Source of the DNA: a virus
Direction: 5' to 3' (one strand)
Length of the DNA: 64,000 nucleotides
Virus record (IMG/VR): IMGVR_UViG_3300045988_060960
Part shown: positions 232 to 63,474 of the stretch, one piece after another
Layout of the letters: each line of letters opens with the position of its first letter
Numbering within the stretch: the stretch's first letter is position 1
Program-made: the position numbers and the translations under genes
The notes under the pieces: generated by a model
The model's database searches: none
What the model saw: the letters and a program-made list of their open reading frames with translations, nothing else
Told to the model about the DNA's origin: nothing

Positions 232-260
232 ATTATAGCACTTTAAGTCGTTTTTGTCAA
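232..260 (-). promoter_or_regulatory. Sigma-70-type promoter TTGACA-17-TATAAT reading leftward
   Basis: On the minus strand, TTGACA is at 260-255, followed by a 17-nt spacer and TATAAT at 237-232. The promoter plus leader is nearly identical to the one at 18507-18560. Confidence 0.55.
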
Positions 261-349: not shown

Positions 350-832
350 TCAGTTGGATTTAATGAGACGGGTCAGGAGCGAATCGTACAGTTCCTGAAG
401 GATCTTGCACCGCGCCTCTGCTTCTGCAAGACGGGTGTCCAAATCGGGAATGGGGGGGGTCTCCTCACTTCGAGCTTCGGGCATCGAATCAGCACCGGCT
501 GCCGGAGCAAGACCGAGAGAAATCAGCATTGCCGTCTCGATGCTGCTCATCTCTGCATCCGTCACAGTACCACAGTAGCTTCCGATGCGCTCGGTGGCAA
601 CCGTGGTGATCTGCTCACAGATCGCAGTGCTGACACGGCTGGTACTGCGGATCGTGACGTGCGTGGGGAGATCGTGCTTGGGTGCGGTGGTGAGGTACAC
701 CATCTCCACGGTGCTGCTGTGCTTGTTGTTGGCGTCGTTGGACACGATGATGGCAGGGCGACCCGGGCGCTGCTCGCTACCTGTGCTGTACCCGCTCTCG
801 ACATACCAGATGCTTCCGCGAACAAAATCCAT
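350..832 (-). CDS. PemK/MazF-family endoribonuclease toxin-like protein with a C-terminal extension of about 50 aa
   Basis: The product MDFVRGSIWYVESGYSTGSEQRPGRPAIIVSND...VYLTTAPKHDLPTHVTI...QITTVATERIG matches the MazF/PemK pattern (G.IW.V...GSEQ.G.RPA.V.S...TT). Start moved to the ATG at 832, which follows GAGGAGG plus 8 nt. The ATG at 850 overlaps that ribosome-binding site. Confidence 0.8.
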   Translation of the reverse strand: MDFVRGSIWYVESGYSTGSEQRPGRPAIIVSNDANNKHSSTVEMVYLTTAPKHDLPTHVTIRSTSRVSTAICEQITTVATERIGSYCGTVTDAEMSSIETAMLISLGLAPAAGADSMPEARSEETPPIPDLDTRLAEAEARCKILQELYDSLLTRLIKSN

Positions 833-846
833 CGCTATGTACCTCC

Positions 847-1578
847 TCACAGGTTGAAATCAATATCGCTGTCTTCAAACTTCGTCCCGTAAGCGTCGTT
901 GTAACTCACGATACACTCACCGGGAATATAGCTCTCGCCATCGGGGCTAAATCGTCCGGAACGAAGCACACTACGCAACGTGAGCGTAGACCGGTGCTTG
1001 TCCTCTCCCATGATGGCTTCTGCCTCATCCGCCGTAATGTTCAGTGTCACACCGAGACGCATCCACAGCTTTTTTGCCGCTGCTTCTGCCGGCTTGTTAT
1101 GCCGACAGCTATCCGTATCCCGGCTGTAATCGCAGTCGCCTGTTCCGCTATGCTGGCACTCATCACACAGCATCAGCCGCTTGCCGCAGACGGGGCAAAA
1201 GGCTTTATAGCCGTGGGCGTCGGTATTCCACACCATCTCGATCTCGCTCCCGCAGTGCGGACAAGCCTCCGTGACGATGTATGTTCTCGGTTCATCCTTT
1301 TCCAGATACGCTTTACGCAGAAGCTCTGCGGCCTGAAATACCGTGTCATCGGAAGCGGGACAGCCATCGCAGGTGTTGCCGTTCGCCCAGTTTTCGAGAC
1401 GTTTGATAACGCTTTTCGGGTCGCTCGACATAACCTTTTCAGCGGTCATGTCCGTAATTTCCGAATCGAAGAAATCAATCTCCATTCCAGTAGCCTTGCT
1501 CTTTGCCTCCCGCTCAGACGAGGCTTCTACCTCTACTTCGCCGTGGCGGAGTTCACTCACTCTGACTTTGTACTTCAT
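847..1578 (-). CDS. Hypothetical protein with zinc-ribbon-like Cys pairs
   Basis: 243-aa ORF with CPHCG...CPVCG...CDECQ motifs. It has 4-nt overlaps with neighbours in the same operon. Confidence 0.7.
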   Translation of the reverse strand: MKYKVRVSELRHGEVEVEASSEREAKSKATGMEIDFFDSEITDMTAEKVMSSDPKSVIKRLENWANGNTCDGCPASDDTVFQAAELLRKAYLEKDEPRTYIVTEACPHCGSEIEMVWNTDAHGYKAFCPVCGKRLMLCDECQHSGTGDCDYSRDTDSCRHNKPAEAAAKKLWMRLGVTLNITADEAEAIMGEDKHRSTLTLRSVLRSGRFSPDGESYIPGECIVSYNDAYGTKFEDSDIDFNL

Positions 1579-3196: not shown

Positions 3197-3334
3197 TCAA
3201 TCCTCCTTTTCCCATTCCATTTGCGCCCGGAGCGTTCGGGCGTACTCGTTGTACGCCCGAACGCTTTCCAGGCTGGCCCAATCGACTTGCTTATGCCGCT
3301 CGGCAAGAGCCGCATAATACTCAGCCTGCGTCAC
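3197..3334 (-). CDS. Small hypothetical protein (45 aa), GTG start
   Basis: Absent from the ORF track. The GTG overlaps the peptidase stop (GTGA). My translation is VTQAEYYAALAERHKQVDWASLESVRAYNEYARTLRAQMEWEKED*. Confidence 0.4.
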   Translation of the reverse strand: MTQAEYYAALAERHKQVDWASLESVRAYNEYARTLRAQMEWEKED

Positions 3335-4371
3335 TGAGGAAGCACCTCCTCCTCATCGTAGCCGAACATCCCGTAGTAGTCCTCGCCGAACTCAGACTGG
3401 CAGAGCATCGTGATTGCCCCATCGCCCATCTCCTCGCGCATCGCATCGAGTTCCTCCGGCGTGTAGAAGTCCAGCAGCGCAAAGTATTCCTCGCGGATAC
3501 TGTCGGGGATATGGGAGAGGTCAGCTCCGTCGCAGTCCGGCTCCAACTCGATGACCTTGCCGCCCTTCGTAGGCGGAAGATCTTTGGGGCGCAGACACGC
3601 GGAGCCACGATCGTAATAGTAGTCGTTGCCCCAATGGCCCCAGCCTCTGCCGAACGACCGCGCTGCCTCGATGTACTCGAACCGGGGGAAGTTGGAGGTC
3701 GTGGATTCTTCAACAATCTCCAAGACCTTTTTTACCGTCTGGTTCAGGTGTTTTCTGTTGATATACTCGTGGAGGGTGTGGGCGTTGTAATACCCAGAGG
3801 AAAGATTTACGGCTGCAACACCGAGCGCGGGCGCCACGTAAGAGATGTCGCTAAACGAACCCCACTCGGTAGCGAAGCCTTTTCCAGTTATGTAACTCTC
3901 GAACTCCGGGTTCTCGCAATCGTAATACACTGCATCGTTGCGGCCCTTGCGGTCGATTTCAATGAGCAGCTTCAAGTTACTCAGTTCTTTCGGGAGGCGG
4001 CCTTTCCCATGCTTTTCACAGAACGCGCTTGCGCCTACGCCGCCGACTTCCTCATCGCAGGTGAACAGGAGCCACGGCTTCACTTTGGCCTGCTCATAAA
4101 CTGCGTTCAGAGCATAAACGCCACAGCGGTCGTCACCGCCGATCCCCTGCGGAGACATCAGGATATTCCCGTTGTCCGAGCGGCAGATAGTCTTGACCCG
4201 CTCCTTGTGTACCGTATCGAGGTGAGCCAGCAGCATAACGGGTGCTTCGCCCTTCACGAGAAGATATTTGCCTTTCAAAACAAAGGTGTCTGCGCAGGTG
4301 CGGTATTTCGTCCGCAACATATCAAAAAGCTCTTTCTGGGTCTGGGTCAGGTAATGCTCCAAGGGTTTCAT
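3331..4371 (-). CDS. M20/M28-type metallopeptidase-like protein with an acidic C-terminal extension
   Basis: The motifs MLLAHLDTVH, GIGGDDRCGV and FTCDEEVGGVGA resemble the metal-ligand motifs of M20/M28/M42 peptidases (family recalled from memory). Confidence 0.7.
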   Translation of the reverse strand: MKPLEHYLTQTQKELFDMLRTKYRTCADTFVLKGKYLLVKGEAPVMLLAHLDTVHKERVKTICRSDNGNILMSPQGIGGDDRCGVYALNAVYEQAKVKPWLLFTCDEEVGGVGASAFCEKHGKGRLPKELSNLKLLIEIDRKGRNDAVYYDCENPEFESYITGKGFATEWGSFSDISYVAPALGVAAVNLSSGYYNAHTLHEYINRKHLNQTVKKVLEIVEESTTSNFPRFEYIEAARSFGRGWGHWGNDYYYDRGSACLRPKDLPPTKGGKVIELEPDCDGADLSHIPDSIREEYFALLDFYTPEELDAMREEMGDGAITMLCQSEFGEDYYGMFGYDEEEVLPQ

Positions 4372-6056
4372 ACAGCTTCCTCCTTTTCATTCTCCTCGAC
4401 AACTGCTCCGCAAGCGGGGCAGGTGCCATCGTTCCGAGCCTCAATCAAATCGCCGCAGTGCGGACAGGTTTCATAGAGTCTCGCACAGTCATCGCAAACT
4501 GTCACGACATCTCCGTCGGCTTTGTGGAGGGTCTGGACATCATCGCCGTGATACAGCTCATCACACCTGTCGCAAATGTAATAATCATCCATGCAATCGT
4601 CGCAGACATAAACCTCACGACTGCCGTTGTGAGCCAGGTGCATATCCTCCCGGCGGTGATATTCGCCGCACTCCTCACACTCCTCGTAATACTCGGAGAG
4701 ACAGCTGTCACAAACATCTCGACCGTCGATGTAATTCACGCTATCATTCGCGTGATATTCGCCGCAGACATCGCAGTAGGTGTAGTTCTCATCGCGGCAA
4801 CGCTCGCAAACCCGAATCCACTCGCCGCGCGAGTTGCGAACATCGAACAGCTCCTCCTCGTATTCCTCGCAATCGTCACACATCTCCGTGTCCCTGTTTT
4901 CCGGGTCGCAATCCTCGCAGTAAACGCCGTGACTGGTTTCGCAGCCGCACATTACGCAAAGCCCCCAGGTTCCAACATCGAGCGGGTTCGCATTTTGGTC
5001 AAAATCAACTCGGGTGCTGATGTGTCCGTCAAAGTCCGGGTAGGCCCAGTCGTGATACCCGCCAAAGCCCTCTCCGACGCAAACCAAATCGCGCCGATCT
5101 CCGGTGGACGAGGTGGTTTTCCACAGGTTCGGGACATTTTCGAGGGCGGAGATTTCACGCTGAACCAGATCGCGGTACAGTTTGGAATCTTCCGCAGCTC
5201 CGTAAACGCCTCCCGACGTGTTGTACATCCGGCTCTGCAAAAGCAGTCCGCTGCCGGGGCGATACGCAAAAATCTGCCGCGTGGTCTTGCGGTTATTAAG
5301 CGTTTCTGCATCCGTCGGGTCTGCTACGGTGAAAACGATGAAGCTAACATCGTCCCGAGCATATCCGGTGCAGCCGTTGTTGTACTCATACTCGGTCGAG
5401 TTAAACGAGTGGCAGCTCGTGAGCGTGCTTCCGCGATCATCGCATTTCGGATTGCTCATCGTGATGAAATGCGCCGGGTTGATGCTGACGAACATCTTGA
5501 ACCCAATCTTCTTGGAGTTCAGCTCATCCGCGAACTGTGCGAATAGCCGCTGGAACTCGCTGCCGGCGGTTTCGTCCGCCACACCAAGTTCAACACACAG
5601 AGCCTTAAAAATACGGCTCGGTTTTCGAGCGGGGGCGTAGGCTTTAGGAGCCAGTCGTTTAATAGCCGCGATATACTGCTCGCGCATATAATCATCGGCG
5701 TTCGGCTCAGAAAAGAACCGGATTGCGTAAACGATGTTGTCCCGAAGGATTCGGTCCCCATTGTGCATGGGGTCGTACAGAATCTGGCGGGCAAGCCGTT
5801 CGATGCGATTATAGTCAGGGTTGTGGGTTCTGGTTCCGTTGATAACCAGCGCGTCCAACTTAGTGTTCCAGACCGGGGACTTGCTGAACAACTCGCGCAG
5901 CCCCTGCTTTGCGATGCTGCTGTCCTTCGCAAGGCGCTTGATGAATTTCTCCGATACATCATTCAGCACATCGCGCTGACGGGTGTGGCGTCCGTAGTCT
6001 TCCATTGCCGTTCTGATATTCTGTTCGGCCTGCTCGATGATTTCCTGCATTTCCAT
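4368..6056 (-). CDS. Large hypothetical protein; the C-terminal third is an array of CxxC zinc-ribbon-like units
   Basis: 562 aa. The C-terminal region runs CVMCGC..CEDCD..CDDCE..CERCR..CDVCG..CDSCL..CEECG..CDDCM..CDRCD..CDDCA..CPHCG..CPACG. The N-terminal two-thirds are unrecognised. Confidence 0.75.
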   Translation of the reverse strand: MEMQEIIEQAEQNIRTAMEDYGRHTRQRDVLNDVSEKFIKRLAKDSSIAKQGLRELFSKSPVWNTKLDALVINGTRTHNPDYNRIERLARQILYDPMHNGDRILRDNIVYAIRFFSEPNADDYMREQYIAAIKRLAPKAYAPARKPSRIFKALCVELGVADETAGSEFQRLFAQFADELNSKKIGFKMFVSINPAHFITMSNPKCDDRGSTLTSCHSFNSTEYEYNNGCTGYARDDVSFIVFTVADPTDAETLNNRKTTRQIFAYRPGSGLLLQSRMYNTSGGVYGAAEDSKLYRDLVQREISALENVPNLWKTTSSTGDRRDLVCVGEGFGGYHDWAYPDFDGHISTRVDFDQNANPLDVGTWGLCVMCGCETSHGVYCEDCDPENRDTEMCDDCEEYEEELFDVRNSRGEWIRVCERCRDENYTYCDVCGEYHANDSVNYIDGRDVCDSCLSEYYEECEECGEYHRREDMHLAHNGSREVYVCDDCMDDYYICDRCDELYHGDDVQTLHKADGDVVTVCDDCARLYETCPHCGDLIEARNDGTCPACGAVVEENEKEEAV

Positions 6057-6061
6057 AACTC

Positions 6062-6499
6062 TTACCTCCTGAGCATTCCATCGTTGATGTAGTTGGCGAA
6101 GATCCAGTTCCGACAGGTCTTCTGCCGGCGAGTGTAAATTCCCGGCGGATTGGGAACATAATCCTCAAAGTGAATGCGCCGCGCGTCCGTGATCTTCAAT
6201 CGGATGAGCCGGTTGTTCACCGTAACTGTTTCGCCGGGAGCGGGGATGAACGCGATGTGCGTATTCTGGTGGTAGTTGAATCCGGCGCTCAGTCCGCAGA
6301 GGTAATACGCGACTGCTTTCGGGTGCTCGATAACGTCGATGTCGATGAGCGCCTTGGGCTGGTGCAGAGTTCCGTAGTAAACCCGATTGTCTTTTCCACC
6401 GATGAAACATTCCGCACAGCATTTACTGATGTCAACTCTGCGGATATCCCGCAGCCAGAAAAACTCGTGATATTTTTTGACTTCAAGCGTGAGGTGCAT
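6062..6499 (-). CDS. Cys-containing 145-aa family protein, paralog 1 of 3 (function unknown)
   Basis: MHLTLEVKKYHEFFWLRDIR..CCAECFIG..AYYLCGLS..NTHIAFIP..TCRNWIFANY. It shares these blocks with 19896-20330 and 57538-58008. The ribosome-binding site is AAGGAGGTG. Confidence 0.8.
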   Translation of the reverse strand: MHLTLEVKKYHEFFWLRDIRRVDISKCCAECFIGGKDNRVYYGTLHQPKALIDIDVIEHPKAVAYYLCGLSAGFNYHQNTHIAFIPAPGETVTVNNRLIRLKITDARRIHFEDYVPNPPGIYTRRQKTCRNWIFANYINDGMLRR

Positions 6500-6966
6500 T
6501 ACTTCACCTCCTTCTGCTCGTCCGCGACCTCGGTCTTTTCGGGGGTCTTCTTCTTACGACCGCGCTTCTTGGGCGCGGTCTTTTTCTTTCCGGTCTCCTT
6601 CTTCGTGACCGGCTCGTCAACCGCCCAGCTCAGCTGAACTTTGAAGCTGCCATCGCACATCTTCTCGATCTCGCAGCTCCAACCCTCACCGCTCACCGAG
6701 ACGGAATCGTCATCGCGGTTCGCGCTGTCCGCAGCGGTCTGGATCTGGCTCATGGCGTCCTCCGCTACGATCTGAAGTGCCTCGGCAGCTTTGAGATACT
6801 CAGCCAGCCAGAAAGCGGCTTTCTTGTAACTGCGCACCGTGTAGGTCGCATCCGCCTGACAGCGGCCAGACCCGATCACGATGTCCATGACATTCTCGGT
6901 CTCCGAGAAGTTCGCCTGACCGGGTTCGTGAACCTTGACCCAACGTCCCTGTTTTAGTTCTGCCAT
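6499..6966 (-). CDS. Hypothetical protein with a Lys/Arg-rich C-terminal tail
   Basis: 155 aa. The tail KKETGKKKTAPKKRGRKKKTPEK suggests nucleic-acid binding (inference). Confidence 0.65.
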   Translation of the reverse strand: MAELKQGRWVKVHEPGQANFSETENVMDIVIGSGRCQADATYTVRSYKKAAFWLAEYLKAAEALQIVAEDAMSQIQTAADSANRDDDSVSVSGEGWSCEIEKMCDGSFKVQLSWAVDEPVTKKETGKKKTAPKKRGRKKKTPEKTEVADEQKEVK

Positions 6967-7057
6967 TTGTTTGTCCTCCTTAGCAGTAATTCCGACCTGC
7001 CATCATCAGCGCCGGGGAGGTCGGCCCCCGGCGGACGCCCTTTCGGGCGTTTCGGCT

Positions 7058-18466: not shown

Positions 18467-18535
18467 TTTTCAGAAAATTTTTCGGGAAAAAATTTTAGGA
18501 AAAACCTTGACAAAAATGACCAAAAGTCGTATAAT
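18467..18535 (+). promoter_or_regulatory. Degenerate A/T-tract operator copy plus a TTGACA-17-TATAAT promoter
   Basis: TTTTTCGGGAAAAAATTTTAGGAAAAA is at 18477-18503. TTGACA is at 18507-18512 and TATAAT at 18530-18535. The leader AGAATAGAAAGAAAA is shared with the promoter at 232-260. Confidence 0.6.
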
Positions 18536-18582
18536 AAGAATAGAAAGAAAAAGAAAGAGACCGTAAGAGGAGGCCGATAAAG

Positions 18583-18892: not shown

Positions 18893-19108
18893 CTACTTTC
18901 CGACCGCTTCTCGGCGGCTTTTTCTTTGCCTGAAATCGAACTGATACAGATGTGTTTCAACGCCCAGTGCAGTTTCTCGGTAAAAAATACCGTCTGAAAT
19001 CCACTCTCGGACGATCCGCTCTCCGCCGTTCAACTCAGGCATACTGGCTTTTGCCAGATCTGCAAGCTCTGCCGCAACCGCAAGCAGAACTGAGATGGCC
19101 GTAATCAC
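18893..19108 (-). CDS. Possible small protein downstream of the cro-like gene (GTG start overlapping the TGA stop)
   Basis: There is a GTGA overlap with the stop of 19105-19311. However, the 3' end overlaps a plus-strand terminator-like hairpin, so this may be spurious. Confidence 0.3.
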   Translation of the reverse strand: MITAISVLLAVAAELADLAKASMPELNGGERIVREWISDGIFYRETALGVETHLYQFDFRQRKSRREAVGK

Positions 19109-19311
19109 TGGCCCTGATTTACGTCGTCGGCCAGAAGCTCCTCGATGGTGCAACCGTAGAGCTTCGCAAGCAAGGGCAGCTTATCCGCTCGCGGCTTAGA
19201 AAGCCCACGCTCCCACTTGCTTACGGCGGATTCCTTCACGCCAACGGCCTTTGCGACCTCACGCTGCGTAGGGATGGCTCCGCGAAGCCTCCGCTCTCTC
19301 ATTACGTTCAT
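19105..19311 (-). CDS. XRE-family HTH protein, Cro-like
   Basis: LRGAIPTQREVAKAVGVKESAVSKWERGLSKPRADKLPLLAKLYGCTIEELL is a canonical XRE helix-turn-helix. It is divergent from the second XRE gene. Confidence 0.8.
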   Translation of the reverse strand: MNVMRERRLRGAIPTQREVAKAVGVKESAVSKWERGLSKPRADKLPLLAKLYGCTIEELLADDVNQGQ

Positions 19312-19360: not shown

Positions 19361-19455
19361 CATTATAGCACTTATAGTCCTCAATGTCAACTCCCATTCT
19401 CTTTTTTCTCGAAAAATTTTCTGGTGTTGACAACTTGACTTAAAAGACATATAAT
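19361..19455. promoter_or_regulatory. Divergent lysogeny-switch promoters with an A/T palindrome between them
   Basis: Minus strand: TTGACA at 19390-19385, 18-nt spacer, TATAAT at 19366-19361. Plus strand: TTGACA at 19427-19432, 17-nt spacer, TATAAT at 19450-19455. Between them lies TTTTTTCTCGAAAAATTTTCTGG. Confidence 0.65.
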
Positions 19456-19482
19456 TGACTTTAAGGAAAGGTGGTGACACTT

Positions 19483-19899
19483 ATGGACGGATTCGGTGAT
19501 AGACTGAGAAGGCTCAGAAAAGACCGGGACATCACGCAAGGGCAGCTCGCTGAAGTGATCGGGGTTGTTCCATCTGCCGTGGGCAAATATGAAAGGATTC
19601 CGCAGTCTTACCCGAGTGTGGACGCTCTTATAAAGATTGCGGACTTCTTTGACGTCAGCATAGACTATTTGCTTCGCGGAACTCAGCCATCTCAAACTGT
19701 CGAAAATAACTTGAACGGGCAGATGCTCAACAGCTCTTTCGTGCAGGCCAACCACGGGGGAATCGTGTACAACGGAGACGGAGGTAATAATTTCTCCCCA
19801 GAGGCGTTGGAACTGCTGCGCATTTATGAGACCTTGAATGGCCGGGAACGCTTGAAGCTGCTGAACTTCGCTGTGGAATTGGACGGTGATACGAAATGA
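19483..19899 (+). CDS. XRE-family repressor, CI-like
   Basis: LRRLRKDRDITQGQLAEVIGVVPSAVGKYERIPQSYPSVDALIKIADFFDVSIDYLL. The ATG at 19483 follows AAAGGTGGTG. It is the first gene of an operon ending in the integrase. Confidence 0.8.
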   Translation: MDGFGDRLRRLRKDRDITQGQLAEVIGVVPSAVGKYERIPQSYPSVDALIKIADFFDVSIDYLLRGTQPSQTVENNLNGQMLNSSFVQANHGGIVYNGDGGNNFSPEALELLRIYETLNGRERLKLLNFAVELDGDTK

Positions 19900-20330
19900 G
19901 AGTGACGTTGGATATAAAAAAGCAGTGCTCTTTCTTCTGGCTGAGAGCTATCCGAAGCGCCCGTATAGACCGGTGCTGCGCCAAGTGTTTCATCGGGGAT
20001 GCCTACCACGAGGTCTATGAAGGAACCCGATTCAAAGATAAGGCGCACGTGGATCTGGAAATCACTCCTGATCCGCGTGTCAAGGCGTATTACCTTTGCG
20101 GTCTCAGCCGTGGATTCCGGTACAAGGATAATACTCACATCGCTTTCGTCCCCTGCGAGGGGCAAGACATTGAAGTGGAAAACGACAAGATTCGGCTCAT
20201 AATTACTGGCGCTCGCCAGATTGATTTCCAGAATTACAAGCCGAACCCGGAAGGCGAATATACCCACGAACAGCGTACCTGCCGAAACTGGATCTTCGCC
20301 AACTATTTGCTGGACGGGATGCCGCTTTGA
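19896..20330 (+). CDS. Cys-containing 145-aa family protein, paralog 2 of 3
   Basis: FFWLRAIR..CCAKCFIG..AYYLCGLS..NTHIAFVP..TCRNWIFANY. Its start overlaps the repressor stop (ATGA), and its stop overlaps the integrase start (TTGA). Confidence 0.8.
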   Translation: MRVTLDIKKQCSFFWLRAIRSARIDRCCAKCFIGDAYHEVYEGTRFKDKAHVDLEITPDPRVKAYYLCGLSRGFRYKDNTHIAFVPCEGQDIEVENDKIRLIITGARQIDFQNYKPNPEGEYTHEQRTCRNWIFANYLLDGMPL

Positions 20331-21727
20331 ACCGCGCAGCCCTCTACATCCGCGTCTCTACGCTTGAACAGGCGCAGGAGGGCTATTCCGTAGGCGAGCA
20401 GAAGGAACGCCTGATTGCGTACTGCAAAGCCAAAGACTGGATCATCGCAGACATCTATGTGGATGGCGGATATACCGGCAGCAATCTGAATCGCCCCGGT
20501 ATCCAGAAGCTCATCTCAGAAACGGATAAGTTTGATCTCGTGCTGGTCTACAAGCTGGACCGCCTCTCACGGTCTCAGCGGGACACGCTGTACCTCATCG
20601 AAGAAATATTCCGGCCCAAGGGCGTAGACTTTATCTCCATGCAGGAGAGCTTCGACACCTCTACGCCCTTCGGAAAAGCAATGATCGGCCTGCTGGCAGT
20701 ATTTGCCCAGCTTGAACGCGAGCAGATCAAGGAGCGAACGTGGATGGGCCGCGTTGCCCGAGCCAAAACCGGCCTCCATCACGGTGGCGGGTACATCCCT
20801 ATCGGCTACGAGTATGAGGACGGGCATCTCGTCATCAATCCGTATGAGGCAGAGCAGGTTCGGAAGATCTACGAATGGTATCTCGCCGGCGCTTCCCTGA
20901 AGACAATAACTGACCGGCTGCAAGAGGCGGGGTACACCAATAAATACAGCAGCTATACCTCGTGGTCAAGTGTTCGGAACATTCTCGGCAATGAGACCTA
21001 CACTGGGAGGCTGCACTTCGGAGATGTGGTCGTGGATCACGCACACGAAGCAATTATCAGTACAGAACAGTTCAACGCTGCACAGGTTCTGCGAGGTAAG
21101 AAGCAGGAACAATACGGCACGGCTTTCCAGTCGAAGCACCTCCTGACTGGGCTTATCTTTTGTGGACATTGCGGAGGACGGTATTACCTTCGCAACACCG
21201 GCAAGTACACCTACTATGCCTGCTACTCCCGCACCAAGCAGATAAAGAGCATGGTCAAGGACCCGAACTGCAAAAACAAGATCTGGAAAGGCTCTGAGCT
21301 GGAACCCATCATTGATGCCAAGATCCGGGAACTGCTGTCCTCCCCGCAGATGGCAGCCGAGATTGCGGCAGCTCGAAAGCCAAAGCCAGCCACCGGCAGC
21401 AGAAATACCGAAGTGGAAAAGCGGCTCCGGGAAATCGACAAACAAATTGGTAAGCTCATGGAGCTGTACCAGCACGACGATATACCGCCCGAGCTTCTGG
21501 GCGAGCGCATCAACAAGCTCTACAACGAGCGCACCGCGTTGGAATCCACCCTTGCCCCGGTGGTCGAGGATGAGGCCATGCCGTTCGATTTGGTGGAGGC
21601 CCTCATCTCGGACGCCGCGCAGGTCTGGGACTTCGCGGACGAGAGCCAGAAACGCCGCATCCTGCAAAGCCTCGTGTCCCGCATTGTGCTCACCGATGAT
21701 GACGTCAAGATTGAGTGGGCCTTCTGA
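20327..21727 (+). CDS. Large serine recombinase (phage integrase)
   Basis: AALYIRVSTLEQ carries the catalytic Ser motif. LVYKLDRLSRS is present, followed by recombinase and zinc-ribbon regions (CGHCGG..YYAC) and a coiled-coil tail. It uses a TTG start. Confidence 0.9.
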   Translation: MNRAALYIRVSTLEQAQEGYSVGEQKERLIAYCKAKDWIIADIYVDGGYTGSNLNRPGIQKLISETDKFDLVLVYKLDRLSRSQRDTLYLIEEIFRPKGVDFISMQESFDTSTPFGKAMIGLLAVFAQLEREQIKERTWMGRVARAKTGLHHGGGYIPIGYEYEDGHLVINPYEAEQVRKIYEWYLAGASLKTITDRLQEAGYTNKYSSYTSWSSVRNILGNETYTGRLHFGDVVVDHAHEAIISTEQFNAAQVLRGKKQEQYGTAFQSKHLLTGLIFCGHCGGRYYLRNTGKYTYYACYSRTKQIKSMVKDPNCKNKIWKGSELEPIIDAKIRELLSSPQMAAEIAAARKPKPATGSRNTEVEKRLREIDKQIGKLMELYQHDDIPPELLGERINKLYNERTALESTLAPVVEDEAMPFDLVEALISDAAQVWDFADESQKRRILQSLVSRIVLTDDDVKIEWAF

Positions 21728-25294: not shown

Positions 25295-25737
25295 CAGTTT
25301 GTACCTCCTTCAGAAATGGCAAGAGTGCTGACAAGGGAATCCAGCTCGCATACGGCGTCCTCAATGGCGCTCATACGCTCATCATTCATCTCGTCCTGCT
25401 CACACATGGCGTCCTCGATCTCGCTCATCCGGGTGCCGGTCAGCTCGTCCTGCTCACACAGGGCGTCTTCCAGCGCGGCAGTGCTCTCGTTGACCTGCTG
25501 GATAACAGGCCCGGTCTTATCGACGGCACGGTAATGCCGGTCGATCTCGTACCAGTCGTAGCAGTTGCCCTCCACGTCCTCGGCGCTCTCGATTTTCCGC
25601 ACGACGCGGAAGTTATCGGTGATGGTCTGGTCGGGGAATGTCTGCTCGATCTGGTGGAACCCGGTCAGGTCGGTGTGGGAATCGCCCTTTGTTTTGAGGA
25701 CTTCGATTTCGCCCTGCGTTCCAAATACGTATTCCAA
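25294..25737 (-). CDS. Hypothetical protein in the XkdW position, with EDAxCEQDE repeats
   Basis: A TTG start follows AAAGGAGGA. The repeats are EDALCEQDE, EDAMCEQDE and EDAVCELD. Confidence 0.6.
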   Translation of the reverse strand: MEYVFGTQGEIEVLKTKGDSHTDLTGFHQIEQTFPDQTITDNFRVVRKIESAEDVEGNCYDWYEIDRHYRAVDKTGPVIQQVNESTAALEDALCEQDELTGTRMSEIEDAMCEQDEMNDERMSAIEDAVCELDSLVSTLAISEGGTN

Positions 25738-26861
25738 GTGAGTTCCTCCTTTCGCTGCTTCTGCCGGATGATGCGCTTCAGCTCACGCATGAGACGTTCA
25801 CCTTGGAACAGCATCCGATAGATGTTGTGATTATTGCAGTGTTTCAACTGCCCGAGGCGGGAGAGCAGACTGGCCGCCGCTCCTGCCAAAATGCGCTTTT
25901 TCAAGCGTCTCCGCTTTCGATAACGAGCGATAGCCCGTTTAATGCGGAGAAGATTGTGTTTACGCGGGATGGTGTAACCGCGCCCATAGCGATAGCCTAC
26001 TGCATCAGGCATACGCTCTTTCGGCCTCTCATACCCGCGTCTTGGAGGGTTTAACGGGACGCGTGGATTCCTCCTCACTGTCGGGAATATCTGCCAATCG
26101 GCTTTGAGCCGGAGCTGATGGGCATTCAGCCATGTCTCCACGAGCACACGCAGCTTCTTCAGCTTGCGTTTGTTCGAGCCAAAAATGGTAAGGTTATCCA
26201 TGTAGCGGACGTAGTGCTTGCACAGCCCGCTCTCCCGGATAAGCATGTCCAGCGGCTGCAAGACCGTGTTGGCAAACCACTGAGAGGTATAGGCCCCAAT
26301 CAAAACGCCATCCTTGATGACGCGCCAAATGAGGTCGAGAACGCGATAGTCTTTGATGAGCTGGCGCATACGGTCCATCACGACCTCCGGCTTCAGGCTG
26401 TCGTAGAAGTGGTGGATGTCACCGCAGAACTCATACTTCGTCCCGCGAGGGTCTTTGTCCATCCAGATCTCGATGGCTTTCCGGGCGTGATGCGGGCCTC
26501 TGTCACGGATGCTCCCGCAGCAGTAGTAATCCATCCCGCGCATGAACACAGGCTGCAACACCTGAATCAGAGCGTGGTGGACGTACTGGTCGGGCCACTG
26601 GACCGGCTCGCTGACCGTGCGCCATTTCCGGGCGCTGGCGTCCCATCGCTGAGACACGTGAGGTTTCTTCTGCTCGAAACCGTCGATGATGATTTGCCGC
26701 AGCTCCTTGACGCGCTCCTCCTTTGTTTCCTCCACCCATGCGGTGCAAGAGTTCGGACGATGATGCGTTCGCCAGTGGTGAGTGCGGTTCACCTCGTCGA
26801 TGGCAAGCAGCAGGTTGTCATCAGATACGAGCTTCTCAAAGAGATTCTTTGCTCGCTTCAC
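25665..26861 (-). CDS. DGR-type reverse transcriptase
   Basis: It has NLFEKLVSDDNLLLAIDEV, HHALIQVLQPVF, the DGR hallmark IGAYTSQWFANTVL, and the catalytic box YVRYMDNLTIFG. The GTG start at 26861 follows AAAAGGAGGA plus 9 nt. The upstream in-frame part of the ORF is the TR. Confidence 0.9.
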   Translation of the reverse strand: MKRAKNLFEKLVSDDNLLLAIDEVNRTHHWRTHHRPNSCTAWVEETKEERVKELRQIIIDGFEQKKPHVSQRWDASARKWRTVSEPVQWPDQYVHHALIQVLQPVFMRGMDYYCCGSIRDRGPHHARKAIEIWMDKDPRGTKYEFCGDIHHFYDSLKPEVVMDRMRQLIKDYRVLDLIWRVIKDGVLIGAYTSQWFANTVLQPLDMLIRESGLCKHYVRYMDNLTIFGSNKRKLKKLRVLVETWLNAHQLRLKADWQIFPTVRRNPRVPLNPPRRGYERPKERMPDAVGYRYGRGYTIPRKHNLLRIKRAIARYRKRRRLKKRILAGAAASLLSRLGQLKHCNNHNIYRMLFQGERLMRELKRIIRQKQRKEELTWNTYLERRAKSKSSKQRAIPTPT

Positions 26862-27004
26862 AGGGATGTTCCTCCTTTTAGCTGTACGGGCTTTCCAGCG
26901 CCTCCGCAGAGGTGTACTAACCCGCTCCCCAAATTTGCTTATCTTCACCAAGGGGTGCGCGACTACCTGTGCCGTGAAATGGAGGATTAAGCAAAGCACA
27001 AAAA

Positions 27005-27147
27005 GGATGCGGCAGCCGATGTTCGCGTTCGAGTTCGAGACGTCGTTGTAGTTGACGTAGAACAGGCCGTGGTTGGTGTTCTGGTTGTAGTTGCCACCAA
27101 CGTAGAGGCACGGGTTCGACGAGTTGAAGTTCCAGTTATCGCACGTA
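27005..27147 (-). repeat. DGR template repeat (TR)
   Basis: 143 bp aligned to 27265-27407 (offset 260). It is rich in AAC codons on the minus strand (translates as CDNWNFNSSNPCLYVGGNYNQNTNHGLFYVNYNDVSNSNANIGCR). Confidence 0.9.
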
Positions 27148-27189
27148 ACCCAGAACGATGACATCGGCACTGCACAGGTAGCCCCGGTT

Positions 27190-27259
27190 GGTCCCCGCGC
27201 CTACGGCGCGGGTCCCTTATGAGGGGGCTTCGCCCCCTCAAACTCCCCCATTAGGGGAG
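27190..27259 (-). promoter_or_regulatory. Three consecutive GC-rich hairpins between VR and TR
   Basis: Hairpins: CTCCCC/GGGGAG (27243-27259, including the stop codon), GAGGGGGC-TTC-GCCCCCTC (27221-27239), and CCCGCGCC-TAC-GGCGCGGG (about 27193-27213). Confidence 0.6.
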
Positions 27260-29350
27260 TTCTTGGAGGCGGCAGCCGATGTTCGCGTACGAGTACGAGA
27301 CGCCGTTGAAGTAGACGAAGAACAGGCCGCGGTAGGTGCTCTGGACGTAGTAGCCACCAACGCAGAGGCACGGGTACGACGAGTTGAAGTACCAGTAATC
27401 GCACGAATACGTAGAATCGCTGCCACTGGACGCAGACGGCGCGAACACCGGGAACCCAGCCTGAGTTCTCACTGTGAACTTAGAAGGATAACCGCTCGTT
27501 AGCGTACCCACGTTCACGCCGTTGGCGCTGTCGCTGAACTGGTTGGGATTCTTGATGACGTTCAGGCCGCTGCCGTTGTAATAGCAACCGTCCATCCAGT
27601 CGTACACGTTATCCCACAAGCCCTCGATGTTGCGGTACTGGGTACCGCAGCCGTAGGTGGTGCGGGAGTTCTTCGTGGTGCCGGTATGGTAGGGCATACT
27701 GTCGGTGTACCCCATATTCTCGGTGTTGCTGTCGTTACCGCAGCCATACCCGATTTTCGCCTGAGAGTTCCAATCGGCGAACTCCACAATGTAGAGCAGC
27801 CAGATGGTGAAACGCATCAGGAAGTCCATCTGCCAGATGTTCGCGCCGAGGCCATGAATGGTGGAACGAGCACTGGACCGGGTGATGTTCGCCTTGGGGC
27901 GCTGGCCGCTGGTGGACTTGTTGCTGGACGTGCCGCAGTGATAACGACCGATGTACACGACATCGCGCTCGCCCTTGCCGTCGCCCCTGTCCATGTGGGC
28001 GGGGGAAACAGAAAAGCCGCTCTGCGCTCTGTCGGCGATCTGGATTTTCAGGCCGTTGCCGTTCTGGGTCAGCTTGTACCAGAACTTCGGGATGGCGACC
28101 ATCGTACCGCCGGTGCGCTCGCTCTTGACCATGCCCGCCCACGGCTGCAAATCGTCGAAGGGAGAGCTGTACTTACTTGCGCCCTGCACATACGGCACGG
28201 GGTCAGTGAAGCCCGCCGCCTCATCGGTGCGGGTCCACTTGGTCGTGCTGCTGCCATCCCAGCTCGCGCCGTAGATGTGGACCATGTTGGTCACGTTGAC
28301 CGTAAAGGTCTTGTTGGCGGGAGCGTTGTGGTTCGTGCCAGCCGCGACCTTTACGGTTACAGTCACGTTGCCCTCATCGAGCGCGGTGACGTTTACCTTG
28401 TTGCCGCTGACCGACACGCTGACGACATCGGGGTCGCCGGACGTGGCGGTAATCGCACCGTCGCCCGCACGGGTCACAGTGACGGAGCCGGTAGGCGAAT
28501 CGCCGTTCAGCGACAGCGAAGTCGGATTGAGGCTCAGAGAGCCAGCAGCCTTGGCAATGCTCCACGCCACGGTCTTGGCGGTGGTCGTGCCGTCGCTCCA
28601 CTGGTAGCCGGGCTTCGGAGTGAAGCTGGCATTGTAGCTGCCGGCGTTGGTGCCGCTGGTCGTGCCGCCCAGTGTCAGCTCGGCGCTGTTGTAATCGTCG
28701 AACGTGGGGGTCTGCGCCTGACCGGTGTAGGTCAAGCTCTCGCCCTGAGACGGGATGGCCGCAATGGGGATTTTGACGGTGGCGGTGTAGTTCTCGTCGG
28801 CCTCCGTCACGTTGACCTCTACGGACGCAGAGGTCTTGCCGGAAATTGTGGCGCTTACCGTGTATTTGCCGGCCTTCTTGACCGAGATCGCAGCCACGCC
28901 GCTGCCGTTGGCGGTTGCGGTGTAGGCGCTGCCACCGAGGACAGCCTTTGCCTCCGCGTTGGGGGCAGTCGTGACCGTAATGGTCGCGGTGAACACGGCC
29001 AGCGTGACTTCATACTGGCCGAAGTACGCGCCGGTGGTCACGGTTGCGGAATACTGCTCGCCAGACGCTGTGCTCGCGCTGACGGTGTACTCCGTGTTGC
29101 AGTTCTTGACGCTGACGGAATCCACAAGACCCTCCGGCACGGTGCCGGTCTTGGTGTCCCCCGCGCCGTCAGTAACCGTGTACTGCTGGCCGGCAAAGTC
29201 AGCGTCGAACGTGATTTTCAGGACGCACCCGGAACCGCCGCCCCCTTCAAGCGCCTCGTTCGCCTTCTCCAACGCGCTGTTGGCAAGGGCGCGAACCGCT
29301 TCAAGCTCGGGACCGCTCACGCCGGGTACGTTTACACTTCCATAGCCCAT
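27251..29350 (-). CDS. DGR target: receptor-binding tail-fibre protein with Ig-like repeats and a C-terminal FGE-sulfatase/C-type-lectin-like VR domain
   Basis: 699 aa. The central region has T/S/V-rich beta repeats. The C-terminus ...YIGRYHCG...GLWDNVYDWMDG...CDYWYFNSSYPCLCVGGYYVQSTYRGLFFVYFNGVSYSYANIGCRLQELP carries the VR. Confidence 0.85.
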   Translation of the reverse strand: MGYGSVNVPGVSGPELEAVRALANSALEKANEALEGGGGSGCVLKITFDADFAGQQYTVTDGAGDTKTGTVPEGLVDSVSVKNCNTEYTVSASTASGEQYSATVTTGAYFGQYEVTLAVFTATITVTTAPNAEAKAVLGGSAYTATANGSGVAAISVKKAGKYTVSATISGKTSASVEVNVTEADENYTATVKIPIAAIPSQGESLTYTGQAQTPTFDDYNSAELTLGGTTSGTNAGSYNASFTPKPGYQWSDGTTTAKTVAWSIAKAAGSLSLNPTSLSLNGDSPTGSVTVTRAGDGAITATSGDPDVVSVSVSGNKVNVTALDEGNVTVTVKVAAGTNHNAPANKTFTVNVTNMVHIYGASWDGSSTTKWTRTDEAAGFTDPVPYVQGASKYSSPFDDLQPWAGMVKSERTGGTMVAIPKFWYKLTQNGNGLKIQIADRAQSGFSVSPAHMDRGDGKGERDVVYIGRYHCGTSSNKSTSGQRPKANITRSSARSTIHGLGANIWQMDFLMRFTIWLLYIVEFADWNSQAKIGYGCGNDSNTENMGYTDSMPYHTGTTKNSRTTYGCGTQYRNIEGLWDNVYDWMDGCYYNGSGLNVIKNPNQFSDSANGVNVGTLTSGYPSKFTVRTQAGFPVFAPSASSGSDSTYSCDYWYFNSSYPCLCVGGYYVQSTYRGLFFVYFNGVSYSYANIGCRLQELP
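27265..27407 (-). repeat. DGR variable repeat (VR) at the 3' end of the target gene
   Basis: By my manual alignment there are 18 mismatches to the TR. Every one is at a position where the TR coding (minus) strand has A. The first non-A mismatch (27148/27408) marks the repeat boundary. Confidence 0.9.
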
Positions 29351-51183: not shown

Positions 51184-52644
51184 TTAGAAATTGAAAGAGA
51201 AGCCGAACGGCTGCTTTTCTTCCAGTTCAAGGTAGGCGTTTGCTGACGCATCCACCATATCTTTCAGTTTCCCTACGGGGAAGTTTTCAAGCTGCCTGAA
51301 ATACTCGTCATTCCACTCTGCGAGTTTTACATCGACATTTCCGGCAAGCCACTGAGAGGAAAATGGTTCTGCTCTTGTTACCTTGTCTCCGCTTTCAAGC
51401 GAGGTGGTAACAGTGAAGCCTCCCAGCATTCTCACAAAGCTCTGGGCCTGATCCTTTCCAGCTTGTCCGGGGTCCTGCGGAAGTCGGATAGTCACATTTC
51501 CGTAGAGCGCATTGTCGCTCTGGGCAGTGTTCAGAATGAGTTGTCGCACATCAGCGCCGTTTTCGCGGACATTTATGACGTCCGCGACAAAGATCCGGCC
51601 ATTCTTTCTCTTTCCGAGAAGAACGCCTGCTGTATAAGCGCTGCTGTCGCTACGACTGTTTTTACGTAGAGCCTGCGGCAGTCCGTCAAGTTCGTCCACT
51701 TCACCGGGCGCCGTAGCGGCAAGGTCCCAAGCACGAACCCACCGAACAACGTCGGTAGGCACCGCATGGAACATCTGCCCGACTTTGGAGCGTTTGAAGT
51801 AATGCCCGGCGGATCTTCGGATTTTCCAGTTGCCGTTCAGCAGCTGTTCCTGGTCGAACTCAGACATCGCTCTCAGAGCGCCCATGTATCCAGGGTCGTG
51901 TTTCATCATGGCGGCGTTGTCCGTCAGCTTGGCGCTGATGAAGGATACGGACTTTACGTCTTCTTGCTCCTCCGGGGAATACAGACGGAAAGTTTCGTAC
52001 AGTTCCTGCGGAGTATCGGCCCAGTGGATGATGTTATTTCGCCGGACGAAGTATCGCAGCTTTCCGCATTTACTTTCGTCAGCGTACCCGGTTTCCGGGT
52101 CGATCCACCAGTCGATGAACTTCGCCACCCAGCTCTCGCCGTCAGGGTTGCAAGTGGCGCGGATATGCGGCTTTACGCCGCAGGTTGAGCGGTTACGAGA
52201 GAACATATAGAAAAACTGGCTCTCCGTGAAATGCACGAGTTCGTCGAACATCAGGAGCGGGATCTGAGAACCCTGCCAGTTGTATTTCTCTTTCTCGTAG
52301 AACATATGAGCGAACGTCACTTTGGCGCCAGACTGAAATCGCCACTGCACATTTGGCGTCAAAACGCTTGTCGCACCAAGATACGGATAGATCTCTTGGC
52401 TTGTGGCGTACAGACCGCCAGCGCTCATAATCTGCGGTCTGGACTGGCGGAATATTACGGCCTCGAACAGTTTGTTATCTACGTGCCGCAGACATTCAAG
52501 CAGCAGCGCAAAGGTCTTTCCGCCGCCCGCTGCGCCGCCATAAATACAAATGTCAGCCGGGGACCGCAGAAACATTTCCTGCTTTCCCTTTTGCGGGCGA
52601 ATAATTACCGGGCAGCTGCCGGAATCAGTCTTTCTTTTTGCCAT
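51184..52644 (-). CDS. terL: Terminase large subunit
   Basis: It has a Walker A motif (IYGGAAGGGKTFALL), LLMFDELVHF, and a C-terminal nuclease region. The ATG at 52644 follows GGAGG. Confidence 0.9.
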   Translation of the reverse strand: MAKRKTDSGSCPVIIRPQKGKQEMFLRSPADICIYGGAAGGGKTFALLLECLRHVDNKLFEAVIFRQSRPQIMSAGGLYATSQEIYPYLGATSVLTPNVQWRFQSGAKVTFAHMFYEKEKYNWQGSQIPLLMFDELVHFTESQFFYMFSRNRSTCGVKPHIRATCNPDGESWVAKFIDWWIDPETGYADESKCGKLRYFVRRNNIIHWADTPQELYETFRLYSPEEQEDVKSVSFISAKLTDNAAMMKHDPGYMGALRAMSEFDQEQLLNGNWKIRRSAGHYFKRSKVGQMFHAVPTDVVRWVRAWDLAATAPGEVDELDGLPQALRKNSRSDSSAYTAGVLLGKRKNGRIFVADVINVRENGADVRQLILNTAQSDNALYGNVTIRLPQDPGQAGKDQAQSFVRMLGGFTVTTSLESGDKVTRAEPFSSQWLAGNVDVKLAEWNDEYFRQLENFPVGKLKDMVDASANAYLELEEKQPFGFSFNF

Positions 52645-53059
52645 TCTCACCAACCTCCGAATCTCTCTCAGGCAGGTAAATCTGGACCTGCGGCTGGACA
52701 GAAAGGGGAGTTCCAGTGATCTTGGCCTCCACAGCTTTCCGGTCGTTGAAGAAGTCGCCGCCGTACACCTTCAAGGCATAAATTATGGCGGTCGTATCTC
52801 CACTCGACACGCGCTCCATCAATTTGTTCTGGCACATAGCCACAACGGCAAGACGGCCATTCTTGATGGCTTTCTCCAAAGCAGCGTGTTCTTTTTGGAG
52901 GTTTTGCAAGGTTCGTCTGGTGATGTCGAACACTTTCGCGATCTCATCCATCGACTTACCCTGCATGGCGAGGGACTGCACAATGGCGAGGTTGTTTTCA
53001 ACCTCGCCAGATTCTATCCACTGCTCGAACAGGTCCTTTCTCTTTTTCTCATTAGCCAT
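52625..53059 (-). CDS. terS: Terminase small subunit
   Basis: 144 aa. It has an HTH (GKSMDEIAKVFDITRRTLQNLQKEH) and sits immediately upstream of terL. Confidence 0.75.
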   Translation of the reverse strand: MANEKKRKDLFEQWIESGEVENNLAIVQSLAMQGKSMDEIAKVFDITRRTLQNLQKEHAALEKAIKNGRLAVVAMCQNKLMERVSSGDTTAIIYALKVYGGDFFNDRKAVEAKITGTPLSVQPQVQIYLPERDSEVGENGKKKD

Positions 53060-54455: not shown

Positions 54456-55296
54456 CCCCCTTCAGAAGATAATTCGCAAAGCTCTCCGCCAGAATTGCGC
54501 CAGAGTCGATGTACTCCTTGTACTTCTCGTTCAGCCGGTCCATCTCCACCTGGGAGATGAAGAACGACACATCGCCGAACCGGAACTGACAGAACGGAAG
54601 AGCTGCTTTGGATTCCTTTTTCTGAGGCTCGTCATCGGCTTCGGGGGCCTCATAGGACGCTGCGTTTTCGGCTGCGGGAACGGAAGCGGCGGGCACATCA
54701 GGCTGGGACGCCAGCGTGGGATAGGAAACCTCCGGCGTCGGGGCCGTATCAACTTCATCATACCCGCCCGCAACTGCATCATTTTCTGCGTTGATGATGG
54801 AATTGCTGTCAACGGTGTGGACGGTGGGCTTCTTGGCCTTGGGCTTGTCGTTTACGCCCATGAAGTTGAAAGCCGGAATCTTGATCTCAGCCTGCTCCGG
54901 CTCGATGTCAAACACCTCGGTGCTCAGCTCGAAGCGATCCAACAGCAGCTGGTTCTTGTCAAGCGTGAGGTCAACGAGGGACAGTTCTTCTTTCAGCTTC
55001 TCAAAGTCCCAGTCGCTGTACTCGCTGGTTTTGTTGTCAACCAGTCGGAACAGATTGATCTGCTCCTCAGACAGCTCATCTGCGACGATGCAGGGAACAG
55101 TCTGGATTCCCATTTCACGGCAGGCCCGCACACGGGTGTGACCGCACACGATTGTGTAATTCATGTCGATAACAACCGGGAACAAGAAGCCGAACCGCTC
55201 GATGCTGTATTTCACCTTCTCTACGGCAAGGTCGTTGTTTCGCGGGTTGTTCTCATATTCCCGCAGACGGGATACGGAAACTTCTCTGATGTTCAT
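54439..55296 (-). CDS. ParB-N domain protein (285 aa)
   Basis: LREYENNPRNNDLAVEKVKYSIERFGFLFPVVID..IVCGHTRVRACREMG. The C-terminal motif FRFGDVSFF...RLNEKYKEYI is shared with the next gene. Confidence 0.8.
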   Translation of the reverse strand: MNIREVSVSRLREYENNPRNNDLAVEKVKYSIERFGFLFPVVIDMNYTIVCGHTRVRACREMGIQTVPCIVADELSEEQINLFRLVDNKTSEYSDWDFEKLKEELSLVDLTLDKNQLLLDRFELSTEVFDIEPEQAEIKIPAFNFMGVNDKPKAKKPTVHTVDSNSIINAENDAVAGGYDEVDTAPTPEVSYPTLASQPDVPAASVPAAENAASYEAPEADDEPQKKESKAALPFCQFRFGDVSFFISQVEMDRLNEKYKEYIDSGAILAESFANYLLKGVENRD

Positions 55297-58008: not shown

Positions 58009-58036
58009 TATAGCACCCCCTTAAATGACAGGTCAA
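58007..58036 (-). promoter_or_regulatory. Candidate promoter TTGACC-18-TATAAT for the three-gene SAM cassette
   Basis: On the minus strand, TTGACC is at 58036-58031 and TATAAT at 58012-58007. Confidence 0.45.
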
Positions 58037-59223: not shown

Positions 59224-59238
59224 GTCCTTTTCACCTCC

Positions 59239-59940: not shown

Positions 59941-59943
59941 AGG

Positions 59944-60561: not shown

Positions 60562-60585
60562 CTCATGTCCTCCTTTTTTGGGCAA

Positions 60586-61539: not shown

Positions 61540-61542
61540 CCT

Positions 61543-62244: not shown

Positions 62245-62259
62245 GGAGGTGAAAAGGAC

Positions 62260-63450: not shown

Positions 63451-63474
63451 CCTGTCATTTAAGGGGGTGCTATA

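Follow-up and report, generated by a model that had tools for sequence, protein, structure and literature searches.

Three paralogs of an undescribed phage protein family in one prophage genome and their linkage to ParB_N-fold methyltransferase genes

We analyzed a stretch of viral DNA of 64,000 nucleotides (nt), IMG/VR record IMGVR_UViG_3300045988_060960 (the window, meaning this whole stretch at its full length), which carries three divergent copies of a gene for a Cys-containing protein of about 140 amino acids (aa). The three open reading frames (ORFs) that a preliminary description of the window had assigned to this family were confirmed by the ORF listing and, judged from their sequences, are real, selected, and functional paralogs. 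They belong to a so far undescribed family whose genes, across several bacterial phyla, lie mostly beside those for ParB_N-fold methyltransferases and often just ahead of that for the small terminase subunit. We tentatively favor the reading that the family would supply one conserved, metal-dependent, nucleic-acid-directed activity tied to phage DNA modification and reused in three operons.

Three paralogous genes and their operons

The family ORFs of the window are as follows.

6062-6499, minus strand: family copy 1, an intact ORF of 145 aa
19896-20330, plus strand: family copy 2, an intact ORF of 144 aa, gene 2 of the repressor-copy 2-integrase operon
57538-58008, minus strand: family copy 3, an intact ORF of 156 aa, whose domain begins at M13 (57972)
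63475-63945, plus strand: a mirrored copy 3 rather than a further family gene

The MAFFT alignment of the three copies contains 71 invariant columns, within which all of the motifs quoted in the preliminary description fall. Identity to copy 1 is 55% for copy 2 and 65% for copy 3, in agreement with the earlier estimates by eye of about half and about two-thirds, and profile E-values around 1e-80 place the similarity far beyond chance. The start codon of copy 3 is probably at 58008, because it is preceded by the Shine-Dalgarno sequence AAGGGGG and because orthologues are 154-156 aa long; an extended -10 match (11/12) at 58036-58007 overlaps this likely start codon and its ribosome-binding site. 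The fourth ORF is explained by a repeat scan, in which positions 60742-64000 proved to be the exact reverse complement of 57483-60741 without a spacer. This perfect palindrome, with arms of 3259 nt reaching the window end, is an assembly fold-back or padding and not biology, and it yields false duplicates of five other genes besides the family ORF. Because 60742-64000 merely mirrors 57483-60741, the real contig is ~60.7 kb long; related complete contigs measure 60.7-62.8 kb.

The genes and RNA element next to the three copies are listed below; helix-turn-helix is abbreviated as HTH and S-adenosylmethionine as SAM.

6991-7057, minus strand: type II hammerhead ribozyme (Rfam RF02276, 46.2 bits against a gathering score of 37)
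6499-6966, minus strand: 155-aa gene upstream of copy 1 with a 1-nt overlap; Lys/Arg-rich tail, no match to any protein family
4368-6056, minus strand: 562-aa acidic CxxC-rich protein, downstream of copy 1
3331-4371, minus strand: 346-aa M20/M28-like peptidase (Pfam Peptidase_M20 at 23.4 bits, under the cut-off of 24.6; PHROG peptidase at 1e-28 to 8e-48)
19471-19899, plus strand: 142-aa XRE/CI-type HTH repressor-like protein (HTH_3, 4e-13) without a peptidase domain
20327-21727, plus strand: large serine recombinase (integrase) with Resolvase, Recombinase, and Zn_ribbon_recom domains
56705-57541, minus strand: 278-aa DUF1848 protein (PF08902, 8.5e-88), downstream of copy 3
55906-56700, minus strand: short SAM-synthetase-like protein of 264 aa (S-AdoMet_synt_N, 2.4e-10; PHROG 1569, 1.9e-66)
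53052-55820, minus strand: three ParB_N-fold genes (175 aa, 285 aa, and 467 aa, the last with Methyltransf_23)
51184-53059, minus strand: small (144 aa) and large (489 aa) terminase subunits, terS and terL (PHROG small subunit, 3.7e-17; Terminase_6N/6C)

The preliminary description had named the neighbors correctly, namely the CxxC protein and peptidase for copy 1, the repressor and serine integrase for copy 2, and the DUF1848 and SAM-synthetase-like genes for copy 3; it had called the CxxC-rich protein giant, a term that its 562 aa do not bear out. This protein has an isoelectric point (pI) of 4.65, carries CxxC...CxxC units in series through its C-terminal third, and had no match in Pfam, PHROG, or PDB. 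The DUF1848 protein bears a Cys cluster at its C terminus, and the 264-aa protein matches the N-terminal domain of SAM synthetase only; the two are kept as a pair after copy 3 in many relatives, with the synthetase-like gene optional, and could form a SAM-dependent modification or anti-defense pair. The order in the window is copy 3, DUF1848, SAM-synthetase-like gene, three ParB_N genes, terS, and terL, so that copy 3 sits five genes upstream of terS/terL with the ParB_N genes in between.

Start and stop codons overlap or nearly touch around each copy. The junction of the HTH gene with copy 2 is an ATGA overlap, as is that of copy 3 with the DUF1848 gene; copy 2 and the integrase gene overlap in TTGA (the integrase start codon is TTG), and the 155-aa gene and copy 1 overlap in TAATG. 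Copy 1 and the 562-aa gene are separated by 5 nt, with an AGGAGG ribosome-binding site within the last codons of copy 1. A perfect sigma70-like promoter at 19427-19455 serves both the repressor-like gene and copy 2 and faces a 68-aa Cro-like gene (19105-19311), which is divergent from the repressor-like gene. In their operons, other genes precede copies 1 and 3. The hammerhead ribozyme at 6991-7057, with its CUGAUGA and GAAAC cores intact, occupies the gap between a 49-aa gene and the 155-aa gene ahead of copy 1; a hammerhead is found at the equivalent position in three related loci (L113, L115, and L124). As predicted from its sequence, it would cleave the polycistronic mRNA right before the 155-aa/copy 1 pair. 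Separately, we observed two hammerheads (4386-4450 and 5420-5486) upstream of a distant family member in locus L093 and a twister-P5 ribozyme at 1339-1406 in L121.

The close relatives of the three copies form a subfamily marked by the motif TCRNWIF, with two or three copies per contig in prophages of Clostridia and their relatives, including the cultured Butyricicoccus pullicaecorum DSM 23266, Oscillospiraceae, Lachnospiraceae, Acetatifactor, and Schwartzia. These sequences fall into three paralog groups of 54, 37, and 65 distinct sequences, which are 77-80% identical within a group, 56-63% identical between groups, and ~30% identical to a distant subfamily. All three groups are under purifying selection, with ratios of nonsynonymous to synonymous substitution rates (dN/dS) of 0.04-0.19 where dS was finite and unsaturated. 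For copy 1, the ratio is ~0.1; its exact sequence occurs in 315 collection blocks, and its orthologues in 17 genome loci are 63-87% identical to it. The representative of the 90% cluster of copy 3 (P0001, 94% identical to copy 3) was found in 1057 collection blocks.

Each paralog group maintains its own gene order in ~40 related prophage loci. Copy 1 stands between the 155-aa gene and the 562-aa protein, followed by the peptidase-like gene; a homologue of the 155-aa gene precedes copy 1 in every copy-1-type locus, and the 562-aa protein is kept after it in related loci. Copy 2 stands between the HTH repressor and the serine integrase (~12 related loci). Copy 3 follows a 135-aa gene and is followed by DUF1848, the optional SAM-synthetase-like gene, and the ParB_N genes. 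A circularly permuted relative (L012) places the blocks of copies 1 and 3 in the same direction within one long early-to-late region. We considered a two-gene cassette as the duplicated unit and rejected it, as the three upstream genes show no mutual similarity; the 155-aa gene of the window also has no similarity to the gene upstream of the L093 member.

The preliminary description had proposed that each copy is coupled to a partner of its own and that the family is a modular adaptor, regulator, or specificity subunit. The first part stands insofar as the junctions overlap or nearly touch and the partners are kept in ~40 prophages; this is synteny of whole genomes and no proof of physical or functional coupling. 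An adaptor or specificity subunit, in which each paralog would bind its own downstream effector (the CxxC protein/peptidase, the serine integrase, or DUF1848) and target it, would accord with the retained downstream genes, with the tight junctions, and with seven alignment positions that are fixed differently in, and thus diagnostic of, the three paralog groups. However, fixed neighbors are expected anyway in an entirely syntenic phage genome, overlapping junctions are commonplace in phage operons, and two loci keep the gene without its supposed partner: in L126, a ParB_N gene directly follows copy 3, and in L141, copy 2 lacks the integrase. Further, 57 positions, including the whole Cys/His/Arg/Asn site described below, are identical in all three groups, and the partner found family-wide is a ParB_N methyltransferase with terS and none of the three effectors. 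Because the site is invariant and only seven positions are diagnostic against 57 shared ones, the data point to one conserved activity or target rather than to a variable specificity or adaptor subunit, and we regard the adaptor as unlikely. Of the earlier proposal, the retention of partner genes thus holds, the shared site and the family-wide partner go against an adaptor, and a regulator is a possibility that we weigh below.

A phage protein family with a near-invariant Cys/His site

A profile search of a collection of 5.8 billion proteins gave 421 clusters for the close subfamily and 462 more for the distant one. At 90% identity, the family thus comprises at least ~880 clusters, and every one of the 883 clusters is named "hypothetical" and has no precomputed Pfam domain. 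An exhaustive HMMER search of 1.84 billion representatives at 50% identity returned 277 matches at E ≤ 0.001, nearly all of which are single-domain proteins of 135-190 aa. Members come from phages of Firmicutes, Bacteroidota, Akkermansia, Streptomyces, and a planctomycete and from a provirus of a methanogen. Family proteins tend to be basic: the median pI is 8.5, and 47 of 74 diverse members exceed 8.

The preliminary description could not assign the family, and neither sequence-profile nor fold searches gave a known domain. Pfam, PHROG, NCBIfam, and PADLOC returned no significant match for the three copies, and the 74 diverse members scanned against the profile libraries produced only sub-threshold chance matches, as did the copies themselves. 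Sequence-profile searches of PDB gave no match, and a tblastn search with three different members found none in 50,697 GenBank phage records; among the cultured phages of the collection searched, none encodes a member. The literature around DUF488, DUF1848, or ParB-like methyltransferases near the terminase yielded no paper naming the family. Two members were folded with AlphaFold from deep alignments, with a predicted local distance difference test score (pLDDT) of 94.5 and a predicted template-modeling score (pTM) of 0.88 for one and a pLDDT of 97.4 and a pTM of 0.90 for the other. The predicted fold is compact and beta-rich: six to seven strands, among them a long hairpin, are combined with short helices and a helix at the C terminus. 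Foldseek found no match in PDB for either model (best E values 0.12 and 0.56; template-modeling scores ≤0.33); in a library of predicted viral structures, it found two uncharacterized phage proteins only, both of them family members. We conclude that this is a so far undescribed, phage-only or prophage-restricted family of single-domain proteins of ~140 aa with no annotation or known fold.

Members departing from the single-domain form were inspected individually. The only replicated domain fusion is to DUF488-N3a (four contigs); it lies after a ParB-methyltransferase gene and before a DAM-like-phage1/GNAT-phage-like protein, followed by ParB_N, terS, and terL, and DUF488-N3a is the separate next gene in two other loci. 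We rejected a fusion of BlaR1-M56 to a truncated family domain (P0121), which occurs on a single 3.4-kb contig and is a probable assembly chimera, a fusion of ~330 aa to the domain (P0131), for which support comes from one 2.9-kb contig only, and "long forms" of 399, 250, and 215 aa, which are ORF over-extensions in high-GC DNA or frameshifts.

Conservation was counted over an alignment of all 354 distinct full-length members, down to ~22% identity. Cys-28, Cys-68, His-81, and Cys-129 co-occur in all but one of the 354. The sole exception (P0135) has lost all four, together with Trp-15, Tyr-66, Arg-130, and Asn-131. Trp-15, Tyr-66, Asn-79, Arg-130, and Asn-131 are each kept in at least 351 members. 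Position 27 is His in 188 members and Cys in 164. The second Cys of the CCA.C motif, Cys-31, which is also the second Cys of the only CxxC in the family, is variable (Ser, Gly, Thr, or Ala instead). No acidic residue is invariant across the family. In the AlphaFold models, Cys-28 and Cys-129 lie at helix N termini, and the long beta-hairpin with the helix after it carries Asn-79/His-81 and Arg-130/Asn-131. The site is thus essentially invariant across ~350 sequences from several bacterial phyla and an archaeon. Because the Cys/Cys/His/Cys set is co-invariant and is lost jointly in P0135, and because position 27 swaps between His and Cys, we infer a putative metal centre, which would probably hold zinc. 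Together with the adjacent Arg, Asn, Asn, Tyr, and Trp, it may form one conserved functional site.

Invariant Cys, His, and Asn residues, with Cys-28 and Cys-129 at helix N termini, could also suit a cysteine-type protease, and the setting of copy 2 lends itself to such a role. In ICEBs1, the gene order is immR-immA-int, which the repressor-copy 2-integrase order within one operon parallels; the 142-aa repressor has an HTH and no S24 peptidase domain, and no Peptidase_M78 gene is recorded in the surrounding 20 kb. On this view, copy 2 would cut the neighboring XRE-type repressor as an anti-repressor of the ImmA kind, and further phage proteins would be processed by copies 1 and 3. The likeness to ImmA/IrrE (Peptidase_M78, COG2856) is confined, however, to copy 2. 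The family has no HEXXH motif, no invariant Glu among its conserved columns, no Pfam match of the PF06114 type, and a different predicted fold, and most members lie outside immunity regions, in a methyltransferase/terminase context. No papain-like or transglutaminase-like fold was matched either, and three invariant cysteines suit a metal site better than a catalytic triad. We therefore consider a protease very improbable.

Linkage to ParB_N-fold methyltransferase genes and candidate roles

Outside the Clostridia lineage, IMG/VR and GTDB genomes supplied 92 distinct loci with a gene of the distant subfamily (Bacteroidales, Akkermansia, Blautia, Streptomyces, the planctomycete, and others). The gene is single-copy there, with no second family copy within 12 kb. 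A cluster containing ParB_N accompanies it in 79 of the 92 loci and lies directly upstream in 61; among 63 distinct upstream neighbors, Methyltransf_23 is present in 42 and ParB_N in 35. The commonest next gene, found in 38 of the 92 loci, encodes an HTH protein of 130-147 aa. A hidden Markov model built from these distant neighbors matches only the small terminase ORF among all ORFs of the window, and for this reason we identify the protein as a terS homologue. The gap to it is ~3-12 nt or an overlap, and it is followed by an SNF2 helicase, a small HTH protein, and terL; the helicase is the ~557-aa gene two places downstream of the family gene, which we had considered as terL and rejected.

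The linkage to ParB persists through changes of gene order and orientation. In Akkermansia-type prophages, a ParB-methyltransferase/family pair lies between terL and the portal gene, other Akkermansia-type loci have the family gene a few genes upstream of a split ParB_N and methyltransferase, and a Methanobrevibacter provirus has two ParB_N genes that converge on the family gene. Across 21 loci, family distances track those of the ParB-methyltransferase better than those of terS (partial r 0.64 against -0.17), a result that is weak because the loci are related. The preliminary description had named a known domain without a preferred gene neighborhood as the finding that would speak against its view; we found no such domain and a clear preference for the ParB_N/terS neighborhood. 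According to PMC12704722, uncharacterized domains accompany the phage ParB-CTPase fold, for example in fusions with DUF3850, DUF4417, and Methyltransf_23. The present family resembles these domains in being enriched in phages and prophages, in having no known function, and in being tied to ParB_N-fold methyltransferases; it differs in being a separate gene rather than a ParB_N fusion and in matching none of those Pfam families, and it is not mentioned in the passages of that paper that were consulted.

The position immediately upstream of terS in many loci brings to mind the HNH proteins of HK97-like phages (gp74 type), which share with the family a small size, a basic charge, Cys, His, and Asn residues, and, often, a gene just ahead of that for the small terminase subunit. 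A packaging-associated nuclease of this kind would use His-81, Asn-79, and Asn-131 beside a structural zinc, and the invariant His, Asn, and Cys residues, as well as the modeled hairpin and helix that carry Asn-79/His-81 and Arg-130/Asn-131, could be accommodated. Yet there is no Pfam HNH (PF01844) match, Foldseek finds no beta-beta-alpha-metal nuclease, and the motif order differs, with spacing far wider than in HNH (the conserved His and Asn are at least 50 residues apart). The place next to terS is occupied in many of the distant loci and not by copies 1 and 2 of the window, which lie in non-packaging operons distant from the packaging genes; some loci have a true HNH gene as a neighbor, and the closest link of the family is to ParB_N methyltransferases. 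Such a nuclease is accordingly improbable in our estimation.

The same position is where Gram-positive phages encode late regulators, and a small zinc-containing regulator of gene expression, with a role like that of Mu Com, P2 Ogr, lambda Q, or RinA, might bind RNA polymerase, mRNA, or DNA and activate its own operon, with one paralog each for the lysogenic, early, and late operons. In favor are the small size, basic charge, and Cys/His content of the protein, the placement of the three copies in three differently timed transcription units, and the possibility that invariant residues touch a conserved host machine. Mu Com and P2 Ogr are also small Cys-containing phage proteins, and the Com gene overlaps a DNA-modification gene, as the family does here with DUF1848 and DUF488. 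They are, however, C4 fingers of 60-70 aa with paired CxxC motifs and no sequence similarity to the family, whose C/C/H/C set is spread along the whole chain of a 140-aa domain. No HTH or sigma-like region was found, Pfam and NCBIfam gave no match to RinA, ArpU, Ogr, or Com, and the predicted fold is beta-rich. Downstream gaps of at most ~12 nt or overlaps leave no space for a regulated promoter or terminator, including before terS, where activators of the RinA/ArpU/Ltr type would need one, and copies 1 and 3 do not lead their operons. Further, the adjacency to the ParB-methyltransferase survives inversion, which favors a link at the protein level over operon control. For these reasons, we find a regulator doubtful.

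We return to the reading of a metal-dependent, nucleic-acid-directed factor, which is drawn from the putative metal centre, the conserved site, the basic charge, and the ParB-methyltransferase/terS position, and which we hold tentatively, at a little less than an even chance. The family protein would be a small enzyme or a DNA- or RNA-binding subunit that works with the phage ParB-fold methyltransferase DNA-modification module before packaging. Its gene may have been triplicated long ago in the Clostridia phage lineage. Copy 3 appears to retain the ancestral setting, because the ParB_N genes, terS, and terL follow it, with DUF1848 and the SAM-synthetase-like gene presumably inserted ahead of the ParB genes; copy 2 would have been recruited into the lysogeny operon (repressor-copy 2-integrase) and copy 1 into an early operon behind the hammerhead ribozyme. 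Because all three retain the full site, the copies most likely have the same chemistry or binding at different times or with different partners; evolved partner-specific adaptor surfaces are less likely.

Several points weigh against this reading. ParB_N is absent within five genes in 13 of the 92 distant loci, and the counts of ParB_N neighbors have no control from family-free phages with ParB_N beside terS. Metal-dependent nucleases and transferases do not usually lack an invariant acidic residue, as this family does. Neither copy 1 nor copy 2 has a ParB or methyltransferase gene anywhere near it, and a regulator whose host target is conserved universally would account for the invariant residues as well. 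A bolder version, to which we give little credence, is that the family represents a previously unrecognized metal-dependent fold and a dedicated partner of phage ParB-CTPase-fold methyltransferases. It would be either a DNA-modification or anti-restriction enzyme or the missing DNA-loading or specificity module for HTH-less ParB_N proteins, and in one very common prophage lineage of the human gut its duplicates would have taken on new functions, one of them ImmA-like within the lysogeny switch and another in the ribozyme-headed early operon.

Other features of the prophage and significance of the family

The window also contains a complete diversity-generating retroelement (DGR) at 25665-29350 on the minus strand, with the following parts.

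25665-27170, minus strand: DGR reverse transcriptase ORF (RVT_1)
26872-26957: DGR RT-18 RNA
27005-27145: template repeat
27265-27405: variable repeat
27251-29350, minus strand: 699-aa target gene with the variable repeat at its 3' end

All 17 mismatches between the two repeats are at a T of the template repeat on the plus strand, that is, at an A on the coding strand. Four perfect (12/12) matches to a TTGACA-17-TATAAT promoter were found, at 232-260 (minus strand), 18507-18535 (plus), 19362-19390 (minus), and 19427-19455 (plus). The last two form the divergent switch of the repressor-like and Cro-like genes. The first two lie within an 85% inverted repeat (216-289 and 18478-18551), so that a promoter element is duplicated at two operon heads. 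A second inverted repeat (15925-16242/41897-42214; 222 nt at 81% and 69 nt at 90%) joins two intergenic regions ~26 kb apart, and each arm bears a 33-aa ORF starting with MFQCFKT. A PemK/MazF-type toxin gene (350-850, minus strand; 2.6e-21) lies near one end of the phage genome. One prophage end abuts differing host genes in the relatives L001, L002, L011, and L013 (DctP and a two-component system; PhoH/YbeY/Era; a SHOCT protein; a sigma factor), and this junction is ~20 kb from the serine integrase gene by the shorter arc and does not adjoin it.

The prophage is very common in gut metagenomes, with the copy 3 cluster present in more than 1000 collection blocks, and a cultured host with a related multi-copy prophage, Butyricicoccus pullicaecorum DSM 23266 (prophage on NZ_FUXW01000002.1, about 120-147 kb), offers an experimental system. 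With its near-invariant Cys/His/Arg/Asn site on a confidently predicted fold that has no PDB analogue, the family lends itself to structural and biochemical study as a compact target. The role of phage ParB_N-fold methyltransferases is left unanswered in a recent survey (PMC12704722), and their linkage to the family offers a concrete starting point for asking why phages encode them and what their function is. Finally, the ancient triplication into lysogenic, early, and late operons is a natural experiment in the reuse of one small domain.

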